From positions 469,064 through 533,063 of the forward strand of contig CAVTPQ010000003.1 in NCBI GenBank assembly GCA_963736605.1: a stretch of DNA of 64,000 nt, written 5' to 3'. The position numbers and the translations under genes were made by a program. The notes beneath the pieces were generated by a model. The model was not told the DNA's origin and searched no databases. It saw only the letters and a program-made list of their open reading frames with translations. Shown here in pieces: positions 22,176-43,501 of the stretch. This DNA is from an uncultured Alphaproteobacteria bacterium. GTDB lineage: Bacteria; Pseudomonadota; Alphaproteobacteria; Rhizobiales; Xanthobacteraceae. Positions within the stretch are counted from its first letter, which is position 1. Each line of letters begins with the position of its first letter.

Positions 22176-23393
22176 GTGGCGCCTCCAGCATCAGCAAAAT
22201 CGGTCGTCGACTGGCTCATCGACGGTGCGCGCTCCGCGCCGCTGGCGCAGGAGGTGCTGACCGAATTATGCGAGCGGCTCACCGCCATCGGCCTGCCGCT
22301 ATGGCGCGCCATGGTGTTCGTGCGCACGCTGCACCCGGAAGTGGTCGGCCGCCGCTTCGTCTGGCGCCCCGATACCGGAACGGTGATCACCGACGGCAGC
22401 TTCGATTTGCTCGAGCGCGATGTCTTTCGCAACAGTCCTATGGTGCACGTCAGCGAGACCGGAACCGCGCTGCGCCGCCGTGTCGCCGATCGCGATTGCC
22501 CGATGGATTTTCCGGTTCTGTATGACCTGCGCGACGAGGGCGTGACCGATTACGTCGTCTCGCCGCTGCACTTCACCAATGGCGATTTTCATACGGCTTC
22601 GTGGGCGACGCGGCAACCGGGCGGCTTTTCCGATGCCGACATCGAAATGATCGATTGCATTATTGCTCCCTTGGCGCGGGTCGCCGAAATCCGCGCCTAC
22701 TACCGCGTCGCCGGCAATCTGCTCGCGACCTATGTCGGCAAGAACGCCGGCGAACGCGTGCTCGCCGGCCACATCCGCCGCGGCGATACCGAGGACATCC
22801 ACGCCGCGATTTGGCTGTCCGACATGCGCGGGTTCACCAAGCTCGCCGATCGCTTGCCGGCGAAAGCCTTGGTCGATCTGCTCAATCGCTATTTCGACTG
22901 CCAAGTGCCGGCGATTGTCGAACAGGGCGGCGAGGTCCTCAAATTCATGGGCGACGGGCTGTTGGCCATATTTCCCGTCGGCGCCGGCGCGGACGCCCAT
23001 AAGGTCTGCGCCACGGCACTTGCAGCCGCGCAAGCGGCTCGGGCCAATGTAGCGGCGCTGCAGGCAACAGAGGGCGACGGCGCCGGCGTGCGCTTCGGGC
23101 TGGCGCTGCATTTGGGCGACGTGCTTTACGGCAATATCGGCAGCGGCAACCGGCTGGACTTTACCTGCATCGGGCCCGCGGTAAATTTGGCGGCGCGTCT
23201 TGAGAAGCTGGCCGGCCGATTGGGGCGCACCGTCTTGGCATCGCAGGAATTTGCGAAATATTGCCACCGCGATCTGGTACCGATCGGTAAGTTTACCGTT
23301 GCCGGCTTTGCCGAGGAGCAGACCGCTTTCGGGCTTGGGGACGAAGGCTTTGGCGACGAGGACTTTGGCGACGAAAGGAAGGACGAGGAATGA
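22176..23393 (+). CDS. Class III adenylate/guanylate cyclase with N-terminal sensor-like domain
   Basis: AAIWLSDMRGFTKL, KFMGDGLLAIF, GLHLGDVLYGNIG, GPAVNLAARLE. The ORF opens at 22023; GTG 22176 is my best guess for the start. Confidence 0.8.
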   Translation: MAPPASAKSVVDWLIDGARSAPLAQEVLTELCERLTAIGLPLWRAMVFVRTLHPEVVGRRFVWRPDTGTVITDGSFDLLERDVFRNSPMVHVSETGTALRRRVADRDCPMDFPVLYDLRDEGVTDYVVSPLHFTNGDFHTASWATRQPGGFSDADIEMIDCIIAPLARVAEIRAYYRVAGNLLATYVGKNAGERVLAGHIRRGDTEDIHAAIWLSDMRGFTKLADRLPAKALVDLLNRYFDCQVPAIVEQGGEVLKFMGDGLLAIFPVGAGADAHKVCATALAAAQAARANVAALQATEGDGAGVRFGLALHLGDVLYGNIGSGNRLDFTCIGPAVNLAARLEKLAGRLGRTVLASQEFAKYCHRDLVPIGKFTVAGFAEEQTAFGLGDEGFGDEDFGDERKDEE

Positions 23394-27234: not shown

Positions 27235-30200
27235 ATGATGGCTGCATTCGCGAGGGAGGGCGGTTACGGAATTCCGGCTTCCGTAATCCGTAGCGATTCC
27301 TCCCATCCCAATCACATCATCGTCCCGGATGCGCAGTTGCTGTTCACGGCGCAATTCCACCGCGCCGGACCCGATCTCATCCTGATCAGCCAGGACGGCC
27401 GCCATCATATTATTCCGGGTTATTTCGCCTCGGAGCATCGGCCGGCTTTGGCGGCGCCGAACGGCGCCAGCCTCACGCCGGATCTGGTCGATCTGTTGGC
27501 CGGGTCGCCGACGGCCAACGAATACGCCCAGGCGGGTGCTCCGGCGGCGCCAACTCCCGTCGGCACGGTCGAAAAAGTCGTCGGCAGCGTCGCGGTGATG
27601 CGCAACGGCGTCGCGGTCGCGCTCCATGTCGGCGACAAAGTCTACCAGAGCGACGTGATCCAGACCGGCTCCGATTCGCAGGTCGGCATCAGCTTCCCCG
27701 ACGGCACCGCGCTCAATCTCACCGCCAATACGCGGATGGCGATCAACGAATTCAGCTACGATGAGCACGCGGCGTCCGGCAACGGCGCGCTGCTCAGCCT
27801 GGTCGAGGGCTCGTTCTCCTTTGTCGCCGGCAAGGTGGCGCATACCGGCGACATGAAGATCGATACGCCGGTGGCGATCATGGGCATCCGCGGCACCACC
27901 GGCTGGGTGATGGAGCAGGTCGCCACGGTTTCGGCGACCGCGGGCAATGTCACCGTGACGTTCGCGATCGTGCCCGATTTCGGCACCAACCGGGTCGGCG
28001 CCTACGATCTGATCGATCGCAACGGCAATGTCGTTGCGACGGTGTCGGAAGCCGGGCTCGCGGCAACACTGACGGGCAACGGTGTCAATCAGCCGCCGTC
28101 GGTCAGCTTCGCGCAGCTGTCGCCCGCGCAGGCGCAGTTTCAACAGAACGTCATTCCGGCGATCGGCGAGGTCATTCAGCACGCCATTCAGAACAACAAT
28201 CAACCCAATAATAATAACAATAACAACAACCCGACCCCGCAATCGACGCCCGGCAGCCACAGCGACGGCACGCTGCCGCAAGACGTGCCGAACAACCAGA
28301 CCCAGCCGCCACTGGTCAGCAATCCGACCACCACCACGGTCGTCGTCAACACGCCCACCGGCACGCAGACCGTAGACATCACGCTCGCGCCGACCCCGCC
28401 GACCCCGCCGGCACCGACGCCACCGCCGCCTACGCCCACGCCCACGGGTCCGATTACCGACACGTGGAGTCCCCTGAGTGGGAATCCCGCGAGCCCGCCG
28501 ACCTGGAATACGCCGCAAAACTGGAATGCCGGTACGCCGCCGGCGCCGATCGATAATGCTCAGGTTAACTCACCGGTCCCGGCCACCATTACCGATGTCG
28601 AATCGGTCCAAAATCTAACGGTCGCCCTCGGCGCTACCGTTGCGGTCGTCAGCAACACAGGCGCGACCGCGAGTTCGCTCACGGTGTCGAACAGTGCCGA
28701 CGATGCCGGTAAGATCCAAGCCGATTCCACGACTACCGATCCGATCGTCAAATTCGATCTCGCGACGGTGACGGTGGAATCCACCGGAACGATCGAAGCG
28801 CACGGCAACCAGGCGACAGTGTTGTTCTCGGGCGACACCGTCACCGTCAGTACTTCGGGATCGATCATCGCCGACGATTTCGGCGGCATCGTCTTCAATA
28901 CCGCCACGGATTCGAACGGACAAATTCACGGCGATACCCTCGACAATGCCGGCAGCATGACCGCGACCTCCGGCGGCGGAATGTTGATCCAATCGACCCT
29001 TCTCACCAACGAGACCGGCGCGATCATCGAGGCAGACACCGGCGGCACCGTCGAACTCCTGAGCAGCTTCGTTGAGAAAAACCTTGGCACATTCGAAGCT
29101 GGCTCTGATGGCAAATTCGAGATTGTCGATAGCACGATCGACAACGCCGGCGGCAACGTCGAGGCGATCGGCAGCGGCGCCCTCGTGCAGCTGTCCGATT
29201 CGATCATTGAGGGCGGTACGGTAGCAACCGGCGATCCGTCGTCCAGCGCAGCCGGCGAAATCGAAATACTCGCGGCGAGTGGCGCTAATTTGAGCATGCT
29301 CGACGGCACGACCAATGGGCCGCTGACGCTGAATGCCTATGTGCAAGTTGATGCCAATGCCAATCTCGATCTCACCGGTACCATCAACAGCACCGGCACG
29401 GTTGATGCGATCGGCACTGTGCTGCTTTCCGATGCGACTATTCAGGGCGGCATTCTAACGAGCGGCGCTTCCGGGCTTTTCGAAATTCAAAACGTGCCGA
29501 ATAACGCCCCGAGCACGTTCGAAGACGTGACCGTCAGCGGCGCGACCATCCATGTCGACGGCACGCTCGCACTCGACGGCGACACGATCAGCGGCGGCAC
29601 TATCGATGCGCTACTTGGGCCGGCAGGCTCCCCGCAGCCGATTGAGATTCCCGTGCTGGGCTACAACGCCATCGGGCCCGCGGTCAGCGCCAACGGCGAA
29701 TTCGTCGCCTTCATTGCCTCGACCAGCCTGCCGGGACAAGGCGGCGACACGGCCGGATTGATTGAGCTCTACAACGCGACGAGTGGTCAGCTGACCAACA
29801 TTTCCGCGCTCGTTCCGGAAATCGATCTGCACGATGGTGAGCACTTCGGTGACGTACCCTCTATCAGCGACAGTGGCCGCTACGTCGTATTCCAAGGCAA
29901 GTACCAAGTCACTCAAGATAACCTGGACGGCACGACCACAACGTTCCCGTCGTCGGACGTCTTTCTCGACGACAGCCAAACGCAGCAGGTGACGTTGGTG
30001 CGCTCGGACACCGGCAGTGCCGTGATCAGCGGCAACGGCCAGGTCATCGCCGCGCAAGGCAACACGACCGAAAGCGGCGGCGACCACATACTGGTGATGA
30101 ACGACAATGGGTCCGTCCAAACCGAGATCGAAGGCGACCCGAGTTACGTTCCGCCTGATAACAACTCCGACAATTTCGGCAATATCGGATCGGTCTACGA

Positions 30201-33200
30201 TCCGTCGCTGAGCGACAACGGCCGGTTTGTCAGCTTCTGGAGTACGGCGTCGGAAATCGCCGTGACGCAGAACGGGGTGACAACCGATATCTCCACGGGC
30301 AACACGTCGGAGACCGTCGCCCAGGTTTACGTCTACGACACCCTGACCCACACCCTGAAGGAGGCTTCGGGCACCCTCGGCGGCGTCCAGGGCAATGGCG
30401 ACAGCGGCGCGCTCACGCTTGGCAACAACAATAGCGATTGGACGCCGGCGCTCAGCGGCAACGGCCGCTTCGTCGTATTCCAGAGCACCGCGTCGAACCT
30501 CGTTGCCGGCGTCGGCGACGCCAATCACGACGTCTCCAATATTTTCCTTTACGACACGCACACCGGCAAAACCGTCGCCGTCACCACCGCCGACGGATCG
30601 ACGGTGACCGGCAGCAGCATGCGGCCGGAAATCAGCGCCGACGGCAAATACATCACGTTTGCGAGCGACGCCAGCGACCTGCCCGGCGCCAACGGCGGCT
30701 GGCAGACCTATATGGTCGCGATCGATCCGGCGACCGGGGCGCTTGGCTCGCCCGAACTGCTTTCGACCGGCTTTGCCGGCGCCGACAACGGCCAGAACAA
30801 CCTCGCCAACAGCGTCAGCGACGGCGGCGGCGTGGCGGCCTTCGGCGGGGCCGCGCTCGGCTTCAATATCGACGTGGGGCAGGCGACGGTGGTCTCAGCC
30901 GCGGCCGGCACGGTCAAGTTCGCGGGCGGCGCCGTCACCGACTACAACCCGGCCGGAGATACGCTGACCGTAACGGTCAGCGTCGCACACGGCACGCTCG
31001 CGCCGGTCGATACAATCTCGGCAAGCTCGGGCCTCTCCATCGTCGGCGGCAATAACGGCAGCCACGGCACGCTCGAGTTCAGCGGCCCGCTCGATGCGGT
31101 GAACGCCGCTTTGCAGAGCGGCGCCATCTATACGCCGACCGGCTACAACCAGAGTTCGCCGTTTCCCGACACAATGTCGATGACGGTGACGAACACGGCA
31201 GGCGAAATCGCGACACAGACGACGCAATTCGATCCGCAGGCAAGCGGCGTCGTCACCGGCGCAACAAATACCGGGCAATACGACATCTTCCTCGAAAACC
31301 AGCAGACGGTCGACGTCACCGGCGATACCACGATCAACGACCATGCGACGATCGACGGCGGCCTGCTGAGGGTCGAGAGCGGCGTGACGCTGACACTCAA
31401 CGACGTCACCGACAACGGCTCAACGATCCTCAATAACGGCACGCTCGATTTCACCGGCCCGGCGACCCTGCAAAACATCAACCTTATAGGCGGCCAGCTC
31501 ACGATCGAGAGCGACCAAACCCTGACGCTTGGTGACGGCGAGACGCCGGGTGAGGTCACGTTCAAGAACGTCACGGTCACCGATAACGGCACCCTCCAGG
31601 TCGACGCCAACGAAACGCTGACTTGGGCGGGCAGCGATTCGGTCGACGGCTCGGGTGTCTCGGGCGACCTGGTTTTCGATAATAACGGCCACGTCATTTA
31701 TGCCGGTGCGCTCGCCAGCCAGTTTTCGACGGTGACCTGGGAGGGCGCCGGCACGGTCACGCGCGACGGCGGTGGGGTGTCGGGCCCTTCCGATACGCTC
31801 GTCACGAACGAAGGCAATACTTTCGACGGCTTCGGCACGCAGGGCGGCGTCGGCACGACGCTGGTCAACGAGGCGGCCGGCACCTTCGATGCCGACGTCG
31901 CCCATCAGACCTACACGCTTGATTTCAGCAACATCACCAATGCCGGCACGCTGGAGGCGACCAACGGCGGCGAGCTTTTGGTGCACAGCACGGTGCAAAA
32001 TTCGATCGAAGATACCGAAAGCAGCGTCGTTGCGTCCGGCGGTTTTGTCGATTTCGAACTCGGCATCAGCGACGGGACCGCAACGATCAGCGATGGCGGC
32101 AAGCTGGAATACGGCTGGAGCTCGAATGTCGCCACGACATTCGCCGACGCGAGCACGCTGCAGCTCGATCATCAGGATCAGGGCGATGCGCAGGCCTATA
32201 CCGGCACGGTCAGGGGCTTCGGCTCCGGCGACGTGCTCGATCTGAGAGGATTTGAATCGCAGTCGCAATCGAACGATCAATTCACGACGTCCCCCAGTTA
32301 CGACAGCGACACCAACACCACGACGCTGACGATAACGGACACGTCGCAGGGCAACGAAACGTCGGCACCGATCACTTTGTCCGGCGATTACTCGACTGCA
32401 ACGCTAGCTTCCGAAAATCTCGGCTGGTCGGCCACCAGCGACGGCAGCGGCGGCGTGAACGTGACCGAGCAGCCGCTGCCGAATTTCATCTCGTTCTCGG
32501 GCGGGACTATCAATACGAACGGGAATGTTACGCCGCAGATCAGTCCTGACGGCAGCACGCTCACACTGACGGACGGCAACGCTAGCGAAGCCGCTAGCTG
32601 GTTCGCCACCAATCAGGTTTCGGTCGCAGGCTTCACCGCCTCATTCGATTACAAGGCGACTGGGTCAGAGGGCAATCTGGCGGACGGGATGGCCTTCATC
32701 CTGCAGGATTCCAATGCCGGCATTAACGCCTTGGGGGGTAACGGCAGCTCTCTCGGTTATGGCGCCCCCAACCCTACGGGCGGCGGCACTACGATTTCCC
32801 CCAGCGCTGCGGTCGAGTTGAATCTGTACAATGCCGACAGTCCCCATGTGCCGGGCACCAATTTTGCGACAGACGGCGGCTTCGGAAGTTACAATCCGAC
32901 TGGCAGCGTGGACTTCGCGGATACCGGCGACGCAATACAGGTCGTCCTCAGCTACAACGGCAGGGCGTTGACCGAAACGCTGACGGATCTCGTCAACGGC
33001 AACACCTATTCGACGACCTACAACAACGTCGATCTGGCGCAGATTCTGGGCTCCACCACCGCCTATGTCGGTTTCTCGGCCGCCACCGGGGGCGGCGTAT
33101 CGACCCAGACGGTGAGCGATTTCATTTTCGGCACCGCGGCGCAGGCCCATTGGGTGGGCGCGCCGGGTGCTGACTGGACCACCTCAGGCGATTGGAGCGA

Positions 33201-36200
33201 TGGCAACGGCCACGTTATCGCGACGCCGAATTCCACCAGCGACGTCGTCATCGACGAAAGCGGCAACTATACGCTCGCGATCACGAGCGCCGACACGGCG
33301 AACTTGGTCACGCTCACGGCTGCCGGCGCCGACGTTCAGGACGAGGCCGGCGGCTCGCTGACGCTCGCCGGCGCGCTGAGCGTCGACGCGGGCTCATTCA
33401 GCCTCATCGGCGGCAGTTTGACGGCAGCGTCGATTTACGTGGGAAGCGCCAGCTATTTCGTCGCCGAAGGCACCGTGCAGGCCCCGCTCGATAACGACGG
33501 CGGGACCGTGCAGGCCTACGGAAACCTCTCCCTGTCCGGCGCGGTGACCGGCTCTGGCACGTTCGAGGTCAACGGGCATACGCTGGATTTCGGCAACTCG
33601 ATCGCCGGCGGAACGGTAGATTTCGGCGCCGACACCGGCACGCTCCAACTCGACCAATCCGCGAACTTCCACGCCACGGTCAACAATTTCACCGGCAGCG
33701 ACGTGATGGATCTGACCGATGTCGCCTATTCGTCGGGCGAAATCGCGAGTTGGACGCAGGTCACCAGTTCCGGCGGCACTCTGCAGATCTATAACGGCGA
33801 TACGCTGGAGGAGACACTGAATCTCGCCGGTACCTACACGACTGCGAACTTCTCGCTGGCACAAGACTCCGGCGCCGCCTCGCCGCCGGGCAGTCCGGGC
33901 ACGGAAGTGCTGTGGAGCGCGGGCAACACGCCGCCGCCGGTCGATACGTGGACCGGCACCGGCGACTGGACTGACGGGACCCATTGGAGCACCGGCTCCG
34001 CGCCAGGCGCGGGTGCGCAAGCAGCTATTGCAAGTGGCGGTGCTCCGGGAATCAACTTTAATCTCACGTTCGACAGTCTCACAATGCAAAGCAGCGGCGA
34101 GATTGATATCGGCGTGACGTCCGGGGCGATCCTTACCCTCGACGACGGCACGACGATCACTGGCGGCAACTTGGTCATAGGCGATGGCCAAAGTGGCGAG
34201 CTTAAGATCGAGGCCAACGGCACCAACACGTCCGGCGCCACGCTCGACGACGTCAGCGTGCAGAATTTCGGCACCATCCAGGTTGATATCGGACAGCAGC
34301 CGGTTGACTTGGTCTTGTCCGACGGCACGACCGTGAGCGGCGGCACGCTGTCGATCGGCGGCTCGGGCGAAGTCGAGATCGCAGTCGGCAGCGGCATCAA
34401 CGGCAACGGCGCGACGCTCGACGGCGTCACAGTGAACAATCAAGGTCTGCTGCGAGTCGACGACGCCGCAACGCTCACCGTCGCCGACATGGTGACGCTG
34501 CAAGACGGCGGCACGGTGTCGATGCTGAACGCCGGCTCTGGCAGCAATATCGTCGGCGTGCGCGGTTCCGACAATAATCCTGCGAAACTCGACAACGTCG
34601 ACAACATCATCAAGGGGCCTGGCACGATCGGCGACGGCAGCGGGGATTTGGCGCTTACCAATGCCGGCACAATCGACGCCACCCAGGGTCAGACCACTCT
34701 CGATACCGGGAATACCATCACCAACAAGGGCCTGCTTGAGGCGAGCAGCATTGGCTCGCTCGACGTTCAGGACGGCACGATCAACTGGGCTGGCACGACG
34801 CCGACCGCTGGTAGCAATGGTATCTTTGTCGCCGGCACATTGCTGGTGGATACCGCCACGTTGAAACTTACTGGCGGCGGCGACGTGTCGCTCGCAGCCG
34901 GCAGTCAAATCATCGAGGAGCCCGGCAACCAGTTGGTAACGTCTGGCGTTGCTCTAGCCCTGGACAATGTAGACAACACCATTTCGGGCGCGGGCACGAT
35001 CGGCAATCACGACGACCTTCTGGCCCTGACCAACGAGGCCAATGGCACGATCGATGCCAATGTCTCCCGCGCTACGCTTACCATCGACACCGCCGACGAT
35101 CAGGGCCATTCCAGCACGCTCGCCAATGCCGGCACACTGAAAGCGGAAAACGGCGGCGAGCTTTCGGTCCACAGTATCGTCGACAATACCAACGGCACGG
35201 TCGTGGTGTCGGGCGCCGGCAGCTTCGTCGATTTCCTGCTCGGCATCTCTGGCGGCAGCGCGACCATCGCGGACGGCGGCAAGCTGGAATACGGCTGGAG
35301 TTCGGATGTCGCCACCGCCTTTACCGGTCCCGGCACGCTCCAGCTCGACCATCAAAATCAGGAAGACCCGCAGGTCGTGAGCGCGGCTGCGCAGCAGTTA
35401 TCGCTACCCTATGGCGGCACGGTGACGGATTTCGGCACCGGCGATACGATCGACCTGACCGATCTCGCCTATGCCACGAACGAGACCGTGACCTGGACGC
35501 AAGGCGTCGGCAGCGGCACTTTGGCGATTACAAGCGGCGGGCAAACCGCGGACATCGCCCTCGCCGGCACCTATTCGCAGGGCAATTTTGCGCTGTCGAA
35601 GGACAACGGCTCCGGCACCGACGTGGTGTTCAACGACTTTTCTTGGGGCGAGCTCAACTATCCGGCCGTCGTGCAAGGCGAACACCTGTTTGGGGTCAAT
35701 CCGCAGTTCGACTCGTCGGCGGGGTTCATAGCGCTGGCCTACAACGATGCGACCGATTATTCGACGAGCGACACCAGCTTCACGGCCACGCCGAATGTCG
35801 AATCGTTGGATCCGTTTTTCCTGCCGGGGCGGCACGCGCCGCAGACGCTGAGTTCCTTTACCGTGCAGGCACCCGGCCGTTATAATTTGATCGTGCCCAA
35901 CATCGATTATTCGGCGGGCAACTCGCCCGATGGCGTGGCGGGCGTGTTTGCGACCGGCATCTACGTCTTTAAGGGTAAGGTCGATAGTACCAACGGCATC
36001 TGGCAAGTCATTGCCACGCCGGATGGGAACGGCGGCGTCACTCCCGGCGCGCCGACGGAAATCGGCGATGCGTCAACGACCGGCGAGACCATCTATAATC
36101 TGAAGGAAACGTCGCACAGCAGCGGTGGGATCGCTTCAAGCTATTCCATCTCGTGGGATCAATTCGGTGGTAGCAGCACTACCACCGGATCATACAATAT

Positions 36201-38403
36201 CGAAATCCAGCTCATAAACATCAATGGCAGCGCTGGATCACCTGCGAACGTTTTCACCCCCACAGCGGTCCTGACAGTGCCGATAGCAGCGTCCGGACTT
36301 GCCGAAACAGCCTTGCCGGCGTGGGATTTAAGACCCGCCGCCAACGCGTACGTGCTGGCGGTCGCGGAATCGAGCGAAACCGGGACCGACAATGTAATTC
36401 ATTTCCAGGGTTACAAGATCAACACCGGAGGCACGGCGGTAGTTACAGACTCCGTGTCGTTCACTTTGCAGCCGGACCTGAACGCTTACGCAGGTGCGAC
36501 GAACGAAATCGTGCAGCCGGTCATTGCAACGATCAGCCAGTATCCGGGGCAAGTTGCCGAAGCGCTGCAGTTCGCACAATCACCCGATAACGGCAACGAT
36601 TATTTCGTCGCGTGGAATGAGACCGTCAATAGCTCGACCGGCGCCTTCCTTGGCGATCAGGTCGAGTTTGCGGTGCTCAATCCGATAAACTCCACCACCG
36701 TCACAGTCGAACTTCAGAACACATTCCAAATCGCGGACGGTCAGGCGCAGAATGTCAGGGTCGGGGAATTCACCGATCCGTTCAATTCCTCCCAGGATGA
36801 CGTCGTTGTTGCCTACGGCGACGATACCGGCACGCACATCAATGAATATGCCGTGACCGCAACCGGCACAGCAGTCACCCTGCTCGCCAGCTTTACCGAC
36901 CCGACCACGCAAGCCTTTGACAACATGACCGTCATGGGCGACGGGCGGATCGCCATAACCTATAACGATCTGGTCAACCCCGCGCCCGACGAGACCTCGC
37001 AATACGACTTCAAAATCTTCGATCTGCGCGCTGCCGGCATTACTATTGACAATTCGAACCTCAACGATGGCGAGAACAAATACATCGCCGGGACCCATTT
37101 CACCGACACGTTCACCGGCGAGAACAATGTCAACAACCTCTACTACTTCGTCGGCGAGGACACGACGAGCGGCCCGGGGCCGACCGACACCTTCACCGGC
37201 GGCAGCAACGGATGGAACATCGCTGTCTTTGCCGATGCGCGATCCGACTATTCATTTGCGACGGACGGCTCGGTTGTTTCGGCAATCGCCAACAATGGCG
37301 CCGATGCGGCGCATATCGGCTCGCTCGATGTGACGAACGTCCAATTCCTGGCGTTCGATCCGGCCTCCGATCCGACGCCGCACAACAACACGATCGATGT
37401 GAACGGCGGCACCTTCGTTGTTCTCCAAGGCAATATCCCGGGAAGCAGCAATGCAGTCCCTATTTCAATCGAGGCTGGCGCCACGGCTGAAATCGACACG
37501 GCGGCCCCATATTCGGGATCGGTGACGTTCGAGGCGGCGACCGGCACGCTAGGCATCGACCAACCCAACGATTTCCACGGCACCATCGCCAACATTACGA
37601 CGAGTGGCGATATCCTAGATCTCGGCGGATTTAACGCCGCAACCGATTCGATCTCCGCGACCACCGGCTTCGGAAGCTTTAGCAGCGGCGACACGACGCT
37701 GACGGTTGACGATGCGACGGACAGCCAGTCGGTGCAACTCACCCTAGTGGGTGACTATTCCGAGTCGGGCTGGACAGTCACAAGCGACGGCCATGGCGGC
37801 GCCGACGTTTTCGATCCGCCGATCACGAATTCACCCACCGATCCTGTGGTGGATTCGTCGGCGACGGCGACGGGCGTAAACGGCACCGTGACATTCACCG
37901 ATTCCGACGCGACCGGAACAGAGCCGGCGAGCTTCACGCCGGACGGCTCGAATTATCTCGGCAGCTTCTCGCTTGGCCAGGTGACCGACAGCAACGGCGC
38001 CGCGTCCGTCGAATTCGACTTCAACGACGATCAGAATAATCTCACGTCCGGCCAGACACTGACACAGTCCTATAACGTCGCCGTCGCCGGTGCCCAGAAT
38101 CCCGCCGACAACGCCAACCAGACCGTGTCGGTGACGGTCGGCGGGCCCGGCAACGATAATTTCGTGTTCGCGCCCGGCGTCGGCGCCGACACCGTGACCA
38201 GTTTCAATGCGCAGCAGGACACGCTCGCGCTCGACCACTTCGCCAACGTGCAGACGGTGCAGGAATTGCAGGCGCTGATCTCAACCGACATACACGGCGA
38301 TGCGGTGATCAATCTCGGCCACAACGACAGCGTCACGCTCGCCGGCGTCACCGATACGCAATTGCAGCAGGTCATCCACGCCGGTCACGTGCTGCTGCAT
38401 TAA
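27235..38403 (+). CDS. Giant (3,722-aa) mosaic secreted/surface protein; putative T1SS-type adhesin
   Basis: Uninterrupted ORF with consistent codon bias. Contains a FecR-like head, N/P linker, beta-helix tracts, PD40 blades, lectin domain, VCBS-like unit, a GGPGNDNFVF RTX nonapeptide and a C-terminal tail. Confidence 0.9.
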   Translation: MMAAFAREGGYGIPASVIRSDSSHPNHIIVPDAQLLFTAQFHRAGPDLILISQDGRHHIIPGYFASEHRPALAAPNGASLTPDLVDLLAGSPTANEYAQAGAPAAPTPVGTVEKVVGSVAVMRNGVAVALHVGDKVYQSDVIQTGSDSQVGISFPDGTALNLTANTRMAINEFSYDEHAASGNGALLSLVEGSFSFVAGKVAHTGDMKIDTPVAIMGIRGTTGWVMEQVATVSATAGNVTVTFAIVPDFGTNRVGAYDLIDRNGNVVATVSEAGLAATLTGNGVNQPPSVSFAQLSPAQAQFQQNVIPAIGEVIQHAIQNNNQPNNNNNNNNPTPQSTPGSHSDGTLPQDVPNNQTQPPLVSNPTTTTVVVNTPTGTQTVDITLAPTPPTPPAPTPPPPTPTPTGPITDTWSPLSGNPASPPTWNTPQNWNAGTPPAPIDNAQVNSPVPATITDVESVQNLTVALGATVAVVSNTGATASSLTVSNSADDAGKIQADSTTTDPIVKFDLATVTVESTGTIEAHGNQATVLFSGDTVTVSTSGSIIADDFGGIVFNTATDSNGQIHGDTLDNAGSMTATSGGGMLIQSTLLTNETGAIIEADTGGTVELLSSFVEKNLGTFEAGSDGKFEIVDSTIDNAGGNVEAIGSGALVQLSDSIIEGGTVATGDPSSSAAGEIEILAASGANLSMLDGTTNGPLTLNAYVQVDANANLDLTGTINSTGTVDAIGTVLLSDATIQGGILTSGASGLFEIQNVPNNAPSTFEDVTVSGATIHVDGTLALDGDTISGGTIDALLGPAGSPQPIEIPVLGYNAIGPAVSANGEFVAFIASTSLPGQGGDTAGLIELYNATSGQLTNISALVPEIDLHDGEHFGDVPSISDSGRYVVFQGKYQVTQDNLDGTTTTFPSSDVFLDDSQTQQVTLVRSDTGSAVISGNGQVIAAQGNTTESGGDHILVMNDNGSVQTEIEGDPSYVPPDNNSDNFGNIGSVYDPSLSDNGRFVSFWSTASEIAVTQNGVTTDISTGNTSETVAQVYVYDTLTHTLKEASGTLGGVQGNGDSGALTLGNNNSDWTPALSGNGRFVVFQSTASNLVAGVGDANHDVSNIFLYDTHTGKTVAVTTADGSTVTGSSMRPEISADGKYITFASDASDLPGANGGWQTYMVAIDPATGALGSPELLSTGFAGADNGQNNLANSVSDGGGVAAFGGAALGFNIDVGQATVVSAAAGTVKFAGGAVTDYNPAGDTLTVTVSVAHGTLAPVDTISASSGLSIVGGNNGSHGTLEFSGPLDAVNAALQSGAIYTPTGYNQSSPFPDTMSMTVTNTAGEIATQTTQFDPQASGVVTGATNTGQYDIFLENQQTVDVTGDTTINDHATIDGGLLRVESGVTLTLNDVTDNGSTILNNGTLDFTGPATLQNINLIGGQLTIESDQTLTLGDGETPGEVTFKNVTVTDNGTLQVDANETLTWAGSDSVDGSGVSGDLVFDNNGHVIYAGALASQFSTVTWEGAGTVTRDGGGVSGPSDTLVTNEGNTFDGFGTQGGVGTTLVNEAAGTFDADVAHQTYTLDFSNITNAGTLEATNGGELLVHSTVQNSIEDTESSVVASGGFVDFELGISDGTATISDGGKLEYGWSSNVATTFADASTLQLDHQDQGDAQAYTGTVRGFGSGDVLDLRGFESQSQSNDQFTTSPSYDSDTNTTTLTITDTSQGNETSAPITLSGDYSTATLASENLGWSATSDGSGGVNVTEQPLPNFISFSGGTINTNGNVTPQISPDGSTLTLTDGNASEAASWFATNQVSVAGFTASFDYKATGSEGNLADGMAFILQDSNAGINALGGNGSSLGYGAPNPTGGGTTISPSAAVELNLYNADSPHVPGTNFATDGGFGSYNPTGSVDFADTGDAIQVVLSYNGRALTETLTDLVNGNTYSTTYNNVDLAQILGSTTAYVGFSAATGGGVSTQTVSDFIFGTAAQAHWVGAPGADWTTSGDWSDGNGHVIATPNSTSDVVIDESGNYTLAITSADTANLVTLTAAGADVQDEAGGSLTLAGALSVDAGSFSLIGGSLTAASIYVGSASYFVAEGTVQAPLDNDGGTVQAYGNLSLSGAVTGSGTFEVNGHTLDFGNSIAGGTVDFGADTGTLQLDQSANFHATVNNFTGSDVMDLTDVAYSSGEIASWTQVTSSGGTLQIYNGDTLEETLNLAGTYTTANFSLAQDSGAASPPGSPGTEVLWSAGNTPPPVDTWTGTGDWTDGTHWSTGSAPGAGAQAAIASGGAPGINFNLTFDSLTMQSSGEIDIGVTSGAILTLDDGTTITGGNLVIGDGQSGELKIEANGTNTSGATLDDVSVQNFGTIQVDIGQQPVDLVLSDGTTVSGGTLSIGGSGEVEIAVGSGINGNGATLDGVTVNNQGLLRVDDAATLTVADMVTLQDGGTVSMLNAGSGSNIVGVRGSDNNPAKLDNVDNIIKGPGTIGDGSGDLALTNAGTIDATQGQTTLDTGNTITNKGLLEASSIGSLDVQDGTINWAGTTPTAGSNGIFVAGTLLVDTATLKLTGGGDVSLAAGSQIIEEPGNQLVTSGVALALDNVDNTISGAGTIGNHDDLLALTNEANGTIDANVSRATLTIDTADDQGHSSTLANAGTLKAENGGELSVHSIVDNTNGTVVVSGAGSFVDFLLGISGGSATIADGGKLEYGWSSDVATAFTGPGTLQLDHQNQEDPQVVSAAAQQLSLPYGGTVTDFGTGDTIDLTDLAYATNETVTWTQGVGSGTLAITSGGQTADIALAGTYSQGNFALSKDNGSGTDVVFNDFSWGELNYPAVVQGEHLFGVNPQFDSSAGFIALAYNDATDYSTSDTSFTATPNVESLDPFFLPGRHAPQTLSSFTVQAPGRYNLIVPNIDYSAGNSPDGVAGVFATGIYVFKGKVDSTNGIWQVIATPDGNGGVTPGAPTEIGDASTTGETIYNLKETSHSSGGIASSYSISWDQFGGSSTTTGSYNIEIQLININGSAGSPANVFTPTAVLTVPIAASGLAETALPAWDLRPAANAYVLAVAESSETGTDNVIHFQGYKINTGGTAVVTDSVSFTLQPDLNAYAGATNEIVQPVIATISQYPGQVAEALQFAQSPDNGNDYFVAWNETVNSSTGAFLGDQVEFAVLNPINSTTVTVELQNTFQIADGQAQNVRVGEFTDPFNSSQDDVVVAYGDDTGTHINEYAVTATGTAVTLLASFTDPTTQAFDNMTVMGDGRIAITYNDLVNPAPDETSQYDFKIFDLRAAGITIDNSNLNDGENKYIAGTHFTDTFTGENNVNNLYYFVGEDTTSGPGPTDTFTGGSNGWNIAVFADARSDYSFATDGSVVSAIANNGADAAHIGSLDVTNVQFLAFDPASDPTPHNNTIDVNGGTFVVLQGNIPGSSNAVPISIEAGATAEIDTAAPYSGSVTFEAATGTLGIDQPNDFHGTIANITTSGDILDLGGFNAATDSISATTGFGSFSSGDTTLTVDDATDSQSVQLTLVGDYSESGWTVTSDGHGGADVFDPPITNSPTDPVVDSSATATGVNGTVTFTDSDATGTEPASFTPDGSNYLGSFSLGQVTDSNGAASVEFDFNDDQNNLTSGQTLTQSYNVAVAGAQNPADNANQTVSVTVGGPGNDNFVFAPGVGADTVTSFNAQQDTLALDHFANVQTVQELQALISTDIHGDAVINLGHNDSVTLAGVTDTQLQQVIHAGHVLLH
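27559..27909 (+). other. FecR-like domain of the giant protein
   Basis: VGTVEKVVGSVAVMRNGVAVALHVGDKVYQSDVIQTGSDSQVGISFPDGTALNLTANTRM...TPVAIMGIRGTTGWV. Confidence 0.6.
28192..28452 (+). repeat. Low-complexity Asn-run / Pro-Thr-rich linker
   Basis: NNNQPNNNNNNNNPTPQ ... APTPPTPPAPTPPPPTPTPTGP. Confidence 0.85.
29659..30740 (+). other. PD40/TolB-like beta-propeller repeats
   Basis: VSANGEFVAFIAS; ISDSGRYVVFQG; LSDNGRFVSFWSTAS; LSGNGRFVVFQSTASNL; ISADGKYITFASDASDL. Confidence 0.6.
32473..33132 (+). other. L-type (legume-like) lectin / ConA-like domain
   Basis: FTASFDYKATGSEGNLADGMAFILQD; SAAVELNLYN; AYVGFSAATGGGVSTQTVSDFIF. Confidence 0.6.
38140..38403 (+). other. Single RTX nonapeptide plus C-terminal tail (putative T1SS signal region)
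   Basis: GGPGNDNFVFAPGVGADTVTSFNAQQDTLALDHF...DSVTLAGVT...HVLLH. Confidence 0.5.
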
Positions 38404-38576: not shown

Positions 38577-39256
38577 CTAATGCGCCGGTTCGGCCGCTAC
38601 GTCGCTGGCGAGCTTGGTCATCGCCGCCATGTCGTCGGCGACGAATTTGCCGTATTGCTCCGGGCTCATCGGCGCAGTGTCGAACACCATGCGCTGCAAT
38701 TGATTGCGGATCGCCGGGATTTGCAGCGCTCTGTCGATGGCGGCGTTGAGCTTGTCGATGATATCGCGCGGCGTGTTGACCGGCGCCGAGACGCCGCACC
38801 AGATCAGATATTCGCCGATCGGATAGCCGGCTTGCGCCAGCGTCGGCACGCCAGGAAACGACAGCGCGCGATTGGGTGTGCTGACCGCAAGCGGTATCGC
38901 CTTGTGCTGGAGAACCAGCGGCACCGCCGGCGCCATGGGGAAAAAATAAAAGTCGATCTTTCCTGCGGCCAGATCGTCGATCGCCGCGACCGGTCCGCTG
39001 TGAGTCACTGATTTTACGTCAAATCCGGCCGCGACGCGGAACGCTTCGGCGGCGATATAGGGCGCGGTGCCAAGCCCGAGCGAGCCGAATTTGAGCGCGC
39101 CGGGCTTTGCCTTCGCTGCCGCGACGAGATCGGCCAAGGCGTTATCAGCGTCACCGGCCGCGCCGGCCATTGCTGCGCGAGCGCCGCCGTGACGATCGCA
39201 GTTGCGGCCACGGCCACACCCGCGAGCGCCGCGCACACTACCCTGAGCGACTTCAT
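38577..39256 (-). pseudogene. Bug-family TTT substrate-binding protein gene with internal deletion and frameshift
   Basis: The signal peptide + QQWPARPVTLI (frame A, 39256 downward) is joined out of frame to ...LADLVAAAKAKPGALKFGSLGLGTAPYIAAE...C-terminus (frame B). About 80 aa of the N-domain are missing. Confidence 0.6.
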
Positions 39257-39286
39257 GTGGTTTCGCCGGTCCGCCGATGTTCAGGC

Positions 39287-39691
39287 TCAGGCCAGCTTGA
39301 ACAGTGCGAGCACCAGCATGACCTGCGCGACGAATCCGCCGGCGAACACCAACGTGCGCAGCACCGGGATGCCGGCCGTATAGACCGCCGCGTACACGAG
39401 CCGCGACCAGAAGAAGAGCTGGCAGGCCAGCGTCGTCGTCGGCGTTGCCAGGTTTACGTTGAGGTCCTGCGTCGCCAAAACCAGCGGCGCGAAGACAACG
39501 AGATTTTCGACGGTATTGCGATGCGCCGCCATCAGGCGCTGCGCCCAGGCCGATTGCGGCTTGTCGTCGGGGCTCGGATTGGCCAGCGTCGGCATCAGAC
39601 CGCGCACCATGATGCGGTCGAGAATGTACGGGATCCACATCAAGCCCGTCATCGCCGTGGTCATTACTAGCCAGAACAGTTCGTGGGACAT
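39287..39691 (-). CDS. MAPEG family membrane protein
   Basis: WIPYILDRIMVRG...AHRNTVENLVVFAPLVL; four TM segments. Confidence 0.8.
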   Translation of the reverse strand: MSHELFWLVMTTAMTGLMWIPYILDRIMVRGLMPTLANPSPDDKPQSAWAQRLMAAHRNTVENLVVFAPLVLATQDLNVNLATPTTTLACQLFFWSRLVYAAVYTAGIPVLRTLVFAGGFVAQVMLVLALFKLA

Positions 39692-39815
39692 GTCGCCCTC
39701 CCGGCATCGTCAAAGCATGATTTCAAATGCGGTCCCTCAACCGCCGCGGAGCCTAGCGGTTTTCGCCTTTTCTGCATAGCTGGAGCGGCCAAAGGGTGCG
39801 GCGTCGCATTTCGGC

Positions 39816-40985
39816 TCATAGCAGGCGGGGTATGCCGAGCCGTTCGACCTCTTCCAGTACGGCGGCGATGTTCTGATGGCCGGCGCCGAAATGGCTTTTC
39901 GGATCAGGCAGCTCGACCTGGCGCACGCCGGCGAGACGATAATATTTGTCGTGAACCAGGCAGCGGTTGCGGATGAGCGGCCACAGCATGCGGCCGAGCA
40001 TGCGCTGATCGTGACCGTATTTTGCCGTGGGCCCGGCCGTGAAATAACTCCGCATCAGATCAACGATGTCGATGCCGCAATCGGCGCGGCCGGCCCATAG
40101 GCAACCGATCATCAACTCGTTGTGCAGCACGTGGTCGCGTATCACGTGGAACGGGTAGCCGCTGTCGATCCATTCTTGGACGAGACCGGCCTCCTCAGCC
40201 GATAGCCGCGCGTCGCAGTCGCGCACGAGAAAACGGCCGACCGTCTGGTCGTTCATCACCAGGAATCGCTGAAACAAGCCGACGCCAGGATATTCGTCCT
40301 CGATGTTGCGGACGTCGGCGCCGTTGCTGCGCAAATACGCAACGCAGGCGCGCGGCACGTCGGCCGCGACGTAGAACCGGCACGTCCAGCCCGGATAGAC
40401 GGCGCGGCTCGTCACCAGATTGATCATGGCCCCGTAAGCGTAAGACGGCGCCTTGCCCCATAGCGAAAACGAGATGACATCGTCGCCCGTCGATGGAGAA
40501 CTCGGTTCGGTCACGGCGGCCTGCGGCGGATTTGCGCAGGCTTCGGCGTCGCGCAAGGTGAGGGCGCGCTGTCCGTACCGAACGGCATCATCGATCTTGC
40601 CGGTGTAGAAATGCGCCACCTTGAGCGCGTCGAGCATCGTGAGGTCTTCGCCGTACCGGTCGATATAGCGCGCGGCCTGCACGATAGTTTCGTCGTAGCG
40701 CTTCATGTTCGACAGCGTCGCGATCAGCGCCTTCTGCAGGCGAGCGATGTCGGGCTGACGGCGCACCAGTTCCTCTGCCAGCGCGAGCGCCGGCAACCAA
40801 TCTCGCTTCTGGAAAAATCCGTCGAACAGCAATTCCTTGGCAACGAGGTCATCCGGCCGCATCACAATGACGGCACAGGATCTAGCGATAGCCTCATCGT
40901 TCCTGCCGGCCCGCAGCAGCGCACGAATGTGATCGTAGACTTGTGGCGCGACCTTTGGGGAGGTCTCGCTTACAGCGTTGGACAT
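39816..40985 (-). CDS. TPR-repeat protein with C-terminal DxD glycosyltransferase-like domain
   Basis: N-terminal TPR-like helices; C-terminal ISFSLWGKAPSYAYGAMINL..YPGWTCRFYV...LVRDCDARL. ATG at 40985 (the ORF extends to TTG 41006). Confidence 0.65.
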   Translation of the reverse strand: MSNAVSETSPKVAPQVYDHIRALLRAGRNDEAIARSCAVIVMRPDDLVAKELLFDGFFQKRDWLPALALAEELVRRQPDIARLQKALIATLSNMKRYDETIVQAARYIDRYGEDLTMLDALKVAHFYTGKIDDAVRYGQRALTLRDAEACANPPQAAVTEPSSPSTGDDVISFSLWGKAPSYAYGAMINLVTSRAVYPGWTCRFYVAADVPRACVAYLRSNGADVRNIEDEYPGVGLFQRFLVMNDQTVGRFLVRDCDARLSAEEAGLVQEWIDSGYPFHVIRDHVLHNELMIGCLWAGRADCGIDIVDLMRSYFTAGPTAKYGHDQRMLGRMLWPLIRNRCLVHDKYYRLAGVRQVELPDPKSHFGAGHQNIAAVLEEVERLGIPRLL

Positions 40986-41124
40986 TGTCAATTCCGACCC
41001 ACCCAAAACGTCTCACTATGATGCTTCGTCATTAGACTCGGCAAGCTGGGGCAAATGTAGCCTTAGAAACCGGCGCGTCGAAGCTAGGGCCGAGGTAGTA
41101 GGGCACGGTCCTCGCGGCCTCTGA

Positions 41125-41376
41125 TTACTTACTTCGTCTGGATGTGCGCTTCCGAAGCCGTACGCCCGGGCCGCCGCCATTTTCGTCGATGAATTCGACG
41201 CCGGCGTTCTTGAAAGCAGCTTCGATCGCTGCGATCGTTGCGGCATCGCCAACATAACGGCCCGTCTCAATATTAGAAATTGTATTTCGGTGAAGGCCTG
41301 TTGCTTCCGCGAGGTCTCGCACGGTCCAATTAAGGGCCCCTCTAGCCATCCGCAATTGTGCACTTGTCACAGGCAT
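41125..41376 (-). CDS. XRE-family helix-turn-helix regulator (repressor-like)
   Basis: LRMARGALNWTVRDLAEATGLHRNTISNIETGR. Confidence 0.8.
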   Translation of the reverse strand: MPVTSAQLRMARGALNWTVRDLAEATGLHRNTISNIETGRYVGDAATIAAIEAAFKNAGVEFIDENGGGPGVRLRKRTSRRSK

Positions 41377-41444
41377 TATATTGTGCTATTGTCACATGTG
41401 CTGTTGACACAATTGTGGAATATCACGTTAGTCTGGAGGTTGTC
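41350..41444. promoter_or_regulatory. Divergent promoter/operator region between XRE and yqaJ-like genes
   Basis: ATTGTG/ATTGTC half-sites at 41355, 41380, 41388 and 41412. Perfect palindrome cacaattgtg at 41408-41417 overlaps TTGACA (41404-41409). Confidence 0.35.
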
Positions 41445-42293
41445 ATGTCAGAGGCTCGTAACAAAGCGCGAAAATCACAGGTTAGAGGGTTAGACCGTCG
41501 GTACTTTATCGGCGGCTCGGATGCCCGGATCATCATGGGCACCGACGAGGCCGCGTTGGTGCGGCTCTGGCGGGAAAAACGCGGAGAAGTCGAGCCCGAG
41601 GACCTCTCGGGCAACCTCATCGTCCAGTTGGGCCTGGCCACCGAGGACCTCAATCGGCGCTGGTATGGATTGAATACCGGACAAGTCATCACCGATATCC
41701 AGCGGCGAGTGTTTCATCCGGCTCTGAAGTGGATGGCAGCAACATTGGACGGACGTGTGGATGGCAGCGATGCGGTATTCGAAGCCAAGTTCATGCTGCC
41801 GTGGTCGTTCTCGGAGGAGGGAGCGGCCTCGAAATACATGCCCCAGTTGCAGCATAATATGTGGGTGGTGGCGGCCCGGACCGCGGTGCTTTCGGTGATC
41901 ACCGGGGGAGGGAAGTGGGTCGAGATCCTGGCCCATGCCGACCCGCTCTATCAGCACCTGATTGTCACGGCTGAGAGGAAGTTCTGGCGCTGTGTCGAGA
42001 ACGGCGAAGAACCGAAGCTGTTCGGCGTTGAGCCGCCCAAGCCGCGGATCGAGGCGGTCCGCATTGTCGATATGAGCAGCTCCAACGCCTGGGCGGAGTT
42101 CGCCGGCATCTATGCCCAGACCCGCCAAGCCCATCTCGACCATGAGAACGCCAAGGCCGAACTCAAGAGCCTGATGCCGGCGGATGCCAAGGAAGCCACC
42201 GGCCATGGTCTTCACGCCAAGCGCTCGAAGTCCGGCGCCGTAAGCTTCGATCTTCTGGAGAGCAGGGAGGCTAGCCATGCACCGCTCCAGTGA
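41445..42293 (+). CDS. YqaJ-family viral recombinase (lambda-exonuclease-like)
   Basis: [27 protein letters not shown]...[13 protein letters not shown]...[15 protein letters not shown]...VFEAKF. GGAGG lies before the ATG. Confidence 0.8.
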
Positions 42294-42993: not shown

Positions 42994-43501
42994 GGATGCC
43001 TTTCAAACGAAGATTCTTGCGCTCACTGATGCTGGCGCCGCAGCGGTCGGAGCCTCCACATCACGACGTCGATCCGATGGTGATGGAGTTGGATCAGCCT
43101 TGTCCGTGGCCGCTTCGCCAGCTCATGCCGACGCAATCGACAAGAGCGAATTGGCGTTTCCCGAGCCTCGTCGGATTCGCGACAAGGGTCACATGAGGTT
43201 CGTTGCCCAGCAGCCCTGCCTGATCTGCGGCCGCAGTCCTTCGGATGCGCACCACATACGCTTCGCGCAAAGCCGCGCGCTCGCCCGCAAGGTCAGCGAC
43301 GAATTTACCGTGCCGCTGTGCCGTGGACACCACCGCGAACTTCATCGCTGCGGCGATGAAACCAGATGGTGGGGGAAGATCGGGATCGATCCAACCGCAG
43401 CAGCCCGCGCCTTATGGCTCGAAACGCATCCCATGCCAGCGGTCCCGAATGAAACAGGTATCAATGCCGAAGGTCGCATCACGTTCAATAAATCCACTTG
43501 A
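42947..43501 (+). CDS. HNH/zinc-finger nuclease-like ORF (probably the displaced C-terminal part of the ERF gene product)
   Basis: [50 protein letters not shown]. The frame is open from 42851. Confidence 0.55.

Follow-up and report, generated by a model that had tools for sequence, protein, structure and literature searches.

What kind of protein is encoded by a single gene of more than 11 kb, and how could its product leave the cell when no secretion genes flank it? This question is raised by an open reading frame (ORF) on the forward strand of a 64,000-nucleotide stretch of DNA from an uncultured member of the Xanthobacteraceae (contig CAVTPQ010000003.1, positions 469,064 to 533,063; hereafter the window). 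An earlier note, made by reading the letters and their translation, described the product as a mosaic exoprotein with a FecR-like head and an RTX-type tail and regarded the gene as a genomic orphan. We propose, with moderate confidence, that this giant protein is adhesin-like, uses a type I secretion system (T1SS) for export and is retained at the cell surface. The present analysis establishes the gene and its domain identities. It also establishes that the head is homologous to retention domains and the tail to those of T1SS-linked relatives, and that the passenger region in between is a mosaic.

The giant gene, its head and its tail

The gene is real and intact, as the earlier note had it. 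Its reading frame runs uninterrupted from an ATG, a start that is backed by homologues aligning from residue 1, and a GAGGAG Shine-Dalgarno-like sequence lies immediately 5' of it. The GC content at third codon positions (GC3) is 0.78, on par with the neighboring genes. Promoter and terminator scans around the gene gave no signal above chance. An assembly artefact or a pseudogene in decay is a very improbable explanation of the ORF. Truncated homologues with Arg-rich, frameshift-like ends are common in the databases, which would suit such an origin, but these truncations occur in long-read assemblies of metagenome-assembled genomes (MAGs) and are absent from the window sequence, and Illumina-assembled relatives have ORFs of >3,650 aa (L002) and 3,277 aa (L019). 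An 11.2-kb ORF without a stop, with this GC3 and without near-identical internal repeats, also argues against it. Collapsed repeats in the assembly are unlikely since the DNA of the gene contains no tandem repeats and its longest internal repeat measures only 159 nt at 76% identity.

The whole gene and its two ends were delimited as follows (AF2, AlphaFold2; pLDDT, predicted local distance difference test).

27235..38403 (+): whole gene, 3,722 aa, ~377 kDa, pI ~4.05, no Cys, 0.8% Lys, 0.8% Arg, no hydrophobic N-terminus
27235..27555 (+): N-terminal domain (N-domain), aa 1-107, beta strands with the motif VPDAxLLF...RxGxDL...YF (AF2 pLDDT 85-90)
27556..27951 (+): FecR-like domain, aa 108-239 (PF04773; NF033682; 5ix9; Foldseek)
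27952..28197 (+): remainder of the head, aa 240-321, composed of a small beta subdomain plus a long helix (297-321) (AF2 secondary structure)
28198..28494 (+): low-complexity linker, aa 322-420, Asn8 followed by a Pro/Thr-rich part (sequence; AF2 pLDDT <50 over aa 323-340, where the model ends)
37879..38169 (+): VCBS domain, aa ~3549-3645 (TIGR01965, 17.7 bits versus a cut-off of 15.5)
38140..38166 (+): RTX nonapeptide GGPGNDNFV, aa 3636-3644 (regular-expression search of the full sequence)
38170..38400 (+): C-terminal tail, aa 3645-3722, presumed signal domain for T1SS export (AF2 pLDDT ~80-86; homologous tails)

The head (aa 1-321) was modeled with AlphaFold2 from a 60-sequence alignment (pLDDT 78, predicted TM-score 0.74). 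The model consists of a beta-stranded N-domain (aa ~14-75), a helix (82-89), a disordered stretch (95-102) and a FecR-type domain (108-230), followed by the small beta subdomain and the long helix, after which the chain becomes disordered and enters the Asn/Pro/Thr linker. The FecR-like fold that had been read at the N-terminus is recovered by Pfam at aa 140-239 (40.8 bits versus a cut-off of 24), and the Asn8/Pro-Thr linker can be seen directly in the translation. The NCBIfam model retention_LapA (NF033682) matches aa 109-173 (E 1.1e-7), a profile built from the head alignment finds a single PDB entry, 5ix9_A (E 1.4e-5), matched where the FecR-like domain begins, and Foldseek superposes 5IX9 on the head with TMt 0.75, a root-mean-square deviation of 1.2 Å and 31% identity. 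5IX9 is the 'cell surface anchoring domain' of the RTX adhesin of Marinomonas primoryensis. Because these three matches agree, the FecR-like domain is, as judged from profiles and predicted fold, a homologue of the retention/anchor domain of LapA/MpIBP-type RTX adhesins. The N-domain in front of it has no Pfam family, even when searched as an isolated tile at E up to 5, and gives a weak match to the BapA prefix (NF033677, E ~0.15). A search with it finds 1,622 cluster representatives (E<=1e-3). For the top 150, the matching part falls in the first 270 residues, and nearly always in the first 130, of proteins that reach 3,645 aa.

At the other end, the last 100 aa (3623-3722) share 32-64% identity with the tails of five relatives (L009, L075, L046, L038, and L042), whose head-bearing genes precede or lie near genes for an ATP-binding cassette (ABC) transporter and HlyD. 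The VCBS-like unit and the T1SS-like tail with one nonapeptide, both read earlier, were found again, the motif GGxGxDxUx occurring exactly once in the protein. AF2 models the tail as a short mixed strand-and-helix region. The tail also shows a weak partial match to the NCBIfam model of the endo-1,3-1,4-beta-glycanase EglC; Sinorhizobium glycanases related to EglC are T1SS substrates. Neither a signal peptide nor a hydrophobic segment was detected, N-terminal or internal (maximal Kyte-Doolittle 19-residue mean of 0.75 in the first 80 aa). The lack of a signal peptide and of transmembrane segments, the absence of Cys, the low pI and the RTX nonapeptide all speak for T1SS export and retention, and the homology of the tail to those of relatives that directly precede ABC and HlyD genes, such as Afipia birgiae L046, speaks for the T1SS in particular.

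A type V exoprotein, either an autotransporter or a product of two-partner secretion (TPS), is highly unlikely. Trp-rich motifs do open beta-strand-rich tracts in the passenger, and some homologues carry the JGI label 'fibronectin-binding autotransporter adhesin'. However, there is no signal peptide, Pfam searches of the whole protein and of tiles gave no PATR, autotransporter beta-barrel or TPS domain, the C-terminus is the RTX-type tail described above, and no TpsB or POTRA partner gene was found by a Pfam scan of the 30 larger ORFs of the window. Of the tracts with W-x-x-G/NW motifs that the earlier note had likened to PATR repeats, the three Trp-rich motifs were confirmed, whereas the likeness to PATR found no Pfam match on isolated tiles at E up to 5. 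The wider resemblance to autotransporters is likewise dropped, for want of support from hidden Markov models (HMMs), a signal peptide or a detectable C-terminal autotransporter domain.

From these features we infer the export route, topology, retention and adhesive function of the giant protein. It would leave the cell C-terminus first through a T1SS whose genes lie elsewhere in the genome, with the C-terminal tail and its one RTX nonapeptide as export signal. The ~320-aa head would fold in the periplasm and would be unable to cross the outer-membrane channel, and the ~100-aa Asn/Pro/Thr linker would thread this channel, leaving the protein tethered to the cell. Outside the cell, four beta-helix-like stalks would carry two propellers (the first one PD40-like), the L-type lectin and the VCBS unit. 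The most likely ligands of these modules would be glycans on the surfaces of soil, plants, fungi or biofilms.

A mosaic passenger between conserved ends

When the whole protein is searched against Pfam, only FecR is found; tiling and other libraries were needed for the remaining domains. Isolated tiles of the N-domain, the stalks, the end modules and the tail yielded no usable Pfam match at E up to 5. Similarly, self-BLAST of the whole protein returns only the identity match, and the module duplications reported here come from tile-versus-tile BLAST. The passenger is organized as follows.

28495..29631 (+): stalk tract 1, aa 421-799, with a Trp-rich opening motif, rich in Gly/Thr/Ser/Ala/Asp, probably beta-helix-like
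29632..30774 (+): PD40/TolB-like beta-propeller, aa ~800-1180 (PD40 blade match below cut-off; five motifs; internal self-similarity)
31432..32544 (+): stalk tract 2 with a ~100-aa end module, aa ~1400-1770 (duplicated at aa ~2515-2800; tile BLAST)
32560..33147 (+): L-type (legume-like) lectin domain, aa ~1776-1971 (PF00139; PDB 7elv, 1n3o)
33148..35634 (+): stalk tracts 3 and 4, aa ~1972-2800, each opened by a W-x-x-W cluster and closed by an end module
35947..37044 (+): second beta-propeller, aa ~2905-3270 (AF2 pLDDT ~80-90; Foldseek)
37045..37824 (+): short-strand repeat region and fourth end module, aa ~3271-3530 (DSSP of the AF2 model)

Three of the four stalk tracts are opened by a Trp-rich motif (aa 411-430, 1973-1987, and 2239-2251) and each of the four is closed by the ~100-aa end module; the copy at aa 3457-3532 resembles aa 1664-1750. 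A unit of ~290 aa is duplicated (aa 1461-1750 versus 2515-2800, up to 54% identity), the best tile pair being aa 1546-1670 and 2601-2741 (54% identity, E 3e-39). Self-similarity of the protein is confined to a few such modules, at 30-54% identity. The stalk tracts are probably beta-helix-like, to judge from their composition, from the name 'beta strand repeat-containing protein' that the sources give to homologues and from one homologue with a PF13229 Beta_helix match.

The PD40/TolB-type blades and the L-type lectin named in the earlier note were both recovered, with differing scores. For the PD40/TolB-type blades the support is weak: a single blade match appears in two overlapping tiles (19.3 and 18.1 bits; cut-off 20.9), together with five copies of the motif S-x-x-G-[RK]-[FY]-V-x-F (aa 818-1142), and a sequence search of this region against the PDB gave no meaningful match. 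The L-type lectin scores just above its threshold (PF00139, 27.8 bits versus a gathering score of 26.3) and matches legume lectins of the PDB (7elv, E 5.9e-10 over 186 residues; 1n3o, E 1.4e-7). The ~600-aa tract for which the earlier note had no name can be identified as a beta-propeller followed by the short-strand repeat region. This assignment comes from an AF2 model of the C-terminal 822 aa (2901-3722; 39 homologues, mean pLDDT 76), which shows, in this order, the propeller, the repeat region, an end module, a stretch of disorder and the tail. In the PDB, the Foldseek matches of the second propeller are sialidase, pseudaminidase, GH93, phytase and clathrin structures (E 1e-5 to 1e-7, TMt 0.4-0.47); because these TM-scores are low and identity is ~10%, no enzymatic assignment is justified. 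Homologues of this propeller occur in Bradyrhizobium, Pseudolabrys and acidobacterial MAGs. The presence of lectin and propeller domains fits an adhesin-like role. We found no characterized protein with the same order of domains, in line with the earlier note, as a whole-protein phmmer search of the PDB gave 0 matches and whole-protein Pfam only FecR. Look-ups of the exact sequences of the giant protein and of PncB returned no entry, and an RpoD identical to the one examined occurs in a metagenome contig.

The family to which the giant gene belongs is large. A search with the first 330 aa returned 683 homologues, the best 120 at 44-82% identity, and those with names are Xanthobacteraceae and Hyphomicrobiales MAGs. 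In the GTDB species genomes, at least 577 loci encode the head at 40-79% identity, and 80 of these were retrieved for neighborhood analysis; they come from Xanthobacteraceae MAGs, Bradyrhizobium, Afipia, Pseudorhodoplanes, Rhodoplanes, Methylobacterium, Enterovirga, Beijerinckiaceae and one Burkholderiales MAG. Head-bearing ORFs measure 1,350-2,060 aa in isolate genomes and reach the lengths given above for L019 and L002 in short-read MAG assemblies. Nearly all complete ORFs without an evident frameshift (1,350-3,277 aa) carry the same kind of tail. In long-read MAGs, on the other hand, many homologues, such as P0009, P0072, L010, L017, and L020, end at an early stop in Arg-rich nonsense tails that are typical of frameshift errors, and because frameshifts break these copies, databases list mostly 300-600-aa 'FecR family protein' fragments.

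The head is the most conserved part of the family; in the clade of the window gene (clade A, see below) its conservation extends to ~aa 290. With the syntenic relative L002, identity amounts to 77% over aa 1-318, beyond which the two have a single 250-aa stretch in common (43%). What other relatives have in common with the giant protein is the head, the tail and modules scattered between them. The passenger is thus, by sequence comparison, a mosaic whose ends are fixed and whose middle is exchanged even in a syntenic relative. Conservation of head and tail combined with replacement of the passenger fits fixed ends for export and anchoring around a variable binding region. Two head-bearing giant genes (L033 and L015) lie in tandem on contig CAWGYY010000018.1, with head starts 12.3 kb apart, and MFD05502.bin.1.7 has two head-bearing copies on different contigs (L021 and L024). 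Paralogous expansion of the head-bearing family appears to be common.

Gene neighborhoods and candidate partners

Clustering of neighboring ORFs combined with tblastn divides the loci into clade A (39 loci, including the window gene) and clade B (42 loci). They compare as follows (MFP, membrane fusion protein).

Head identity to the window gene: clade A, ~45-79%; clade B, 40-48%
Members: clade A, including the window gene; clade B, Bradyrhizobium, Afipia and others
Typical position: clade A, beside pncB-pncA, an alpha/beta hydrolase and fumarase, as in the window; clade B, between BTLCP and a CHASE2 cyclase
BTLCP (Peptidase_C93, LapG family): clade A, 3/39; clade B, 25/42, of which 22 divergent within 2 kb upstream
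CHASE2 + Guanylate_cyc gene (~745 aa): clade A, 0/39; clade B, 25/42, just downstream
T1SS ABC / HlyD MFP: clade A, 2/39 and 1/39; clade B, 12/42 and 11/42, between the head-bearing gene and the CHASE2 cyclase

Taken over both clades, a BTLCP gene is present at 28 of 81 loci, an ABC gene at 14 and an MFP gene at 12. The three BTLCP genes of clade A (L001, L009, and L025) lie within 10 kb of the head-bearing gene. In clade B the CHASE2 cyclase gene follows directly after the head-bearing gene or after its ABC-MFP pair; in A. birgiae L046 the order is BTLCP, head-bearing gene, ABC (PF00005, PF00664), HlyD and CHASE2 cyclase. A conserved module can thus be delineated at positions 8464-19738 of L046 and at 24 other clade-B loci (e.g., L053, L065, L070, and L075), consisting of a divergent BTLCP gene, a gene for a FecR-headed T1SS-type protein, optional ABC/HlyD genes and a CHASE2 cyclase gene. 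Our literature searches turned up no description of this module. Since genes of the LapG family lie near head-bearing genes in relatives (22 in clade B, 3 in clade A), retention of the giant protein at the cell is suggested by its relatives as well as by its own head. Several recurrent neighbors are specific to clade A (716-aa CarboxypepD_reg, TPR, OMP beta-barrel and GGDEF proteins), and they show no consistent link to the giant gene.

The window itself is in agreement with the orphan status that the earlier note had assigned: among its 30 larger ORFs the Pfam scan found no ABC, MFP, TolC, LapG, LapD or TPS gene. The status is limited to clade A: at related clade-B loci a LapG-family protease gene, T1SS ABC and HlyD genes and a CHASE2 cyclase gene adjoin the homologous gene. 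A tblastn search of the window with the BTLCP, CHASE2-cyclase, ABC and MFP proteins of the family matched only the catalytic domain of an unrelated cyclase. This soluble class III adenylate/guanylate cyclase (22023-23393, +, 456 aa, with an N-terminal 260 aa without a family) is encoded between fumarase and pncA. It initially clustered with the CHASE2 cyclases and was considered as a CHASE2-type partner, but was rejected because only the catalytic domain is common to both (28% identity) and a transmembrane/CHASE2 part is missing. Genes with a similar catalytic domain lie upstream of the head-bearing gene, in comparable positions, in clade-A loci L002, L016, and L019.

Several observations weigh against a retained T1SS adhesin. 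The window gene's own clade is rarely linked to partner genes (BTLCP at 3 of 39 loci, ABC at 2 of 39), and no T1SS, BTLCP or LapD gene lies within the 64-kb window. The retention_LapA score is below the NCBI cut-off (32 versus 50 bits), and the retention-like domain starts at aa 108, behind the extra N-domain, rather than at the extreme N-terminus. The canonical LapG site [T/A/P]AAG was not found, nor any x-A-A-[GV] within the first 460 aa. Just one GGxGxDxUx nonapeptide (aa 3636) is present in the whole protein, a weak form of the RTX feature, and there is no run of Ig-like extender repeats, no Pfam match to an Ig family and no tandem repeat in the DNA. Finally, localization and ligand binding of the giant protein are predictions.

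Some of these points would suit full release of the T1SS-exported protein, which would then be a matrix component or a carbohydrate-binding or -active factor, with the head serving, for example, as an intramolecular chaperone or as an element that paces secretion. Such a protein would need no LapG site in its first 460 aa and neither BTLCP nor LapD in the window, and both the sialidases and GH93 enzymes among the nearest folds of the second propeller and the weak partial EglC match of the tail point in the same direction. We nevertheless consider release unlikely. The head is homologous to retention/anchor domains and is the best conserved region of the family, a folded N-terminal module of 320 aa would hardly fit through a TolC-type channel, and the propeller matches (TM 0.4-0.47, ~10% identity) allow no catalytic assignment. 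Retention of the protein by its head thus remains our preferred reading.

If the protein is retained, its head could also have a signaling role: a receptor cyclase might sense it, intact or clipped by BTLCP, through a periplasmic CHASE2 domain. This would couple the adhesin's state to cyclic AMP or cyclic GMP and would parallel LapD/LapG control without cyclic di-GMP (c-di-GMP). In broader terms, the FecR-like heads may be the long-sought partners of CHASE2 in the periplasm. The T1SS adhesin, the protease of the LapG family and the CHASE2 adenylate/guanylate cyclase would then form a Lap-like module that reports or controls attachment to surfaces, with cyclic AMP or cyclic GMP in place of c-di-GMP and LapD, and the partners of the window gene would have been relocated in the genome. 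We put forward the signaling role and the module only tentatively and think each of them rather doubtful, the module because it rests on gene adjacency and is not directly applicable to the window locus.

Three observations speak for the CHASE2 link. The CHASE2 + Guanylate_cyc gene and the BTLCP gene each accompany 25 of the 42 clade-B loci. Pairs of FecR and CHASE2 genes recur elsewhere: the Burkholderia BiofilmReg operon pairs a LysM-FecR protein with a CHASE2 kinase (PMC5192318), and in Sinorhizobium meliloti the locus tag of SMc02177, which encodes a FecR domain, is the next after that of cyaD1 (SMc02176) (PMC5498481). In addition, a nearly invariant motif across both clades occupies aa 82-100 of the head, with the helix 82-89, S91-P92, five residues and YAQA at 97-100, and in the AF2 model YAQA falls in the disordered stretch between the two head domains. 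LapG cleavage sites are described as a targeting helix followed by DP and [T/A/P]AAG (PMC13090378). The helix-SP-x5-YAQA order echoes this published helix-DP-TAAG order, making YAQAG at aa 97-101 a putative analogue, and cleavage at YAQA would leave the FecR-like plug in place.

Against a CHASE2-read head stand the 39 clade-A loci, the window included, none of which has a CHASE2 cyclase nearby, and the soluble nature of the only window cyclase, which shares no more than its catalytic domain with the CHASE2 enzymes. The FecR-domain gene of S. meliloti is dispensable for signal perception (PMC5498481), and adjacency of genes is no evidence of interaction. What signal CHASE2 domains respond to is not known (PMC5192318). 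We found no paper that links CHASE2 with LapG, or FecR with the retention of RTX adhesins. No EAL or LapD-like cluster is present among the best 25 of 98 recurrent neighbor families. Genes for proteins binding cyclic nucleotide monophosphates (cNMP) form only three recurrent neighbor clusters, and the two identified ones occur at 3-4 clade-B loci each. At L049 (3042-6168) and similar clade-B loci, a cNMP-binding protein and a SulP-STAS-cNMP-binding transporter are encoded beside the BTLCP gene. Such neighbors fit cyclic-nucleotide signaling around the module, at too few loci to be given weight.

The remaining surroundings of the giant gene have further features. Directly upstream of fumarase is a low-GC island (18000-20000, GC 0.53 versus ~0.63) with a 469-aa ORF (18511-19920, -) that has no Pfam match; in the closest syntenic relative, L001, the same slot upstream of fumarase is occupied by the BTLCP gene. 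Directly downstream of the giant gene lies an ORF of the TctC family of tripartite tricarboxylate receptors (38577-39713, -), which covers only profile positions 91-268 of 274; its high GC3 is restricted to an overlapping second frame (39287-39691), and it looks frameshifted or truncated. The adjoining region 39816-46000, in which GC dips to 0.56-0.60, starts with a 396-aa ORF without a Pfam match (39816-41006, -) that precedes a phage-type recombination pair of YqaJ exonuclease (41358-42293) and ERF (42277-42993), and is probably a prophage remnant or island. No tRNA gene was found in the window. A stand-alone PilZ-domain protein, of a c-di-GMP receptor family, is encoded 9 kb downstream (47549-48025, +), and no link to the giant gene was found.

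Comparison with known systems and implications

In the published model of retained RTX adhesins, the retention domain holds LapA-type proteins as a plug in a TolC-like channel and is followed by a helix, a cleavage site and an unstructured segment that spans the channel (PMC13090378). The giant protein resembles LapA of Pseudomonas fluorescens and MpIBP of M. primoryensis, which are biofilm-associated adhesins of the two-step T1SS type, in that it is a giant acidic protein without a signal peptide, has an RTX-type export tail, contains towards its N-terminus a folded retention-like domain (matches to NF033682 and 5IX9) that precedes an unstructured segment, and carries predicted ligand-binding domains within a long stalk. 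LapG-family protease and T1SS ABC/MFP genes adjoin the gene as well, though in relatives only. Unlike those adhesins, it has the additional conserved N-domain of ~107 aa, and its retention-like domain is a full FecR domain with an added subdomain. It also differs from them in lacking the [T/A/P]AAG site, in having one RTX nonapeptide only, and in a stalk of beta-helix-like tracts with end modules instead of tandem Ig-like repeats. No LapD was seen; clade-B relatives have a CHASE2 cyclase instead, and the window has no linked partner genes. Since the FecR-like head is a homologue of retention domains, the plan of head, linker, passenger and RTX tail is already known, and the giant gene is, on the sequence evidence, a variant of the retained RTX-adhesin type without the canonical LapG site, LapD and Ig-like extender.

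Another comparison is offered by DvhA (DVU1545) with DvhG and DvhD of Desulfovibrio vulgaris (PMC13090378), which likewise form a Lap-like system outside the Gammaproteobacteria with regulators unlike those of Pseudomonas. DvhA has a beta-strand retention domain, then a helix and then the cleavage site (PMC13090378). The Dvh system, however, keeps the TAAG di-alanine site and the c-di-GMP receptor DvhD, neither of which was found for the giant gene. The clade-B loci resemble the FecR-CHASE2 pairs (PMC5192318, PMC5498481) in that a FecR domain is encoded beside a CHASE2 receptor, and they share with S. meliloti, also a member of the Hyphomicrobiales, that this receptor is an adenylate cyclase. 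The FecR proteins of those pairs are small, stand-alone periplasmic proteins, whereas in the present family FecR forms the head of a T1SS-type protein of 1,350 to >3,700 aa. With the FecR/PupR anti-sigma regulators, the giant protein has in common the fold of aa ~108-270: in the Foldseek search of the head, the periplasmic domains 4m0n, 4m0h and PupR 6ovk match with E 2e-6 to 3e-5. Unlike these regulators, it has no transmembrane helix, anti-sigma N-domain or STN partner, and no gene for an extracytoplasmic function (ECF) sigma factor or a TonB receptor was found beside it among the neighboring ORFs scanned.

Retained RTX adhesins controlled by LapG and LapD are a leading model for bacterial surface attachment and release, and they have been studied mainly in the Gammaproteobacteria and more recently in Desulfovibrio. 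The present family, uncharacterized and very large, follows the same plan in the Xanthobacteraceae, a group that is abundant in soil and to which the Bradyrhizobium symbionts belong. It is set apart by its head, by the lack of a canonical cleavage site and by a freely exchanged passenger. For annotation, membership in the family explains both the label 'FecR family protein' and the fragments found in long-read MAGs. The position of a gene for a FecR-headed adhesin beside a CHASE2 gene provides a concrete hypothesis on what CHASE2 domains may sense, one that can be tested in the culturable and genetically tractable Bradyrhizobium and Afipia.

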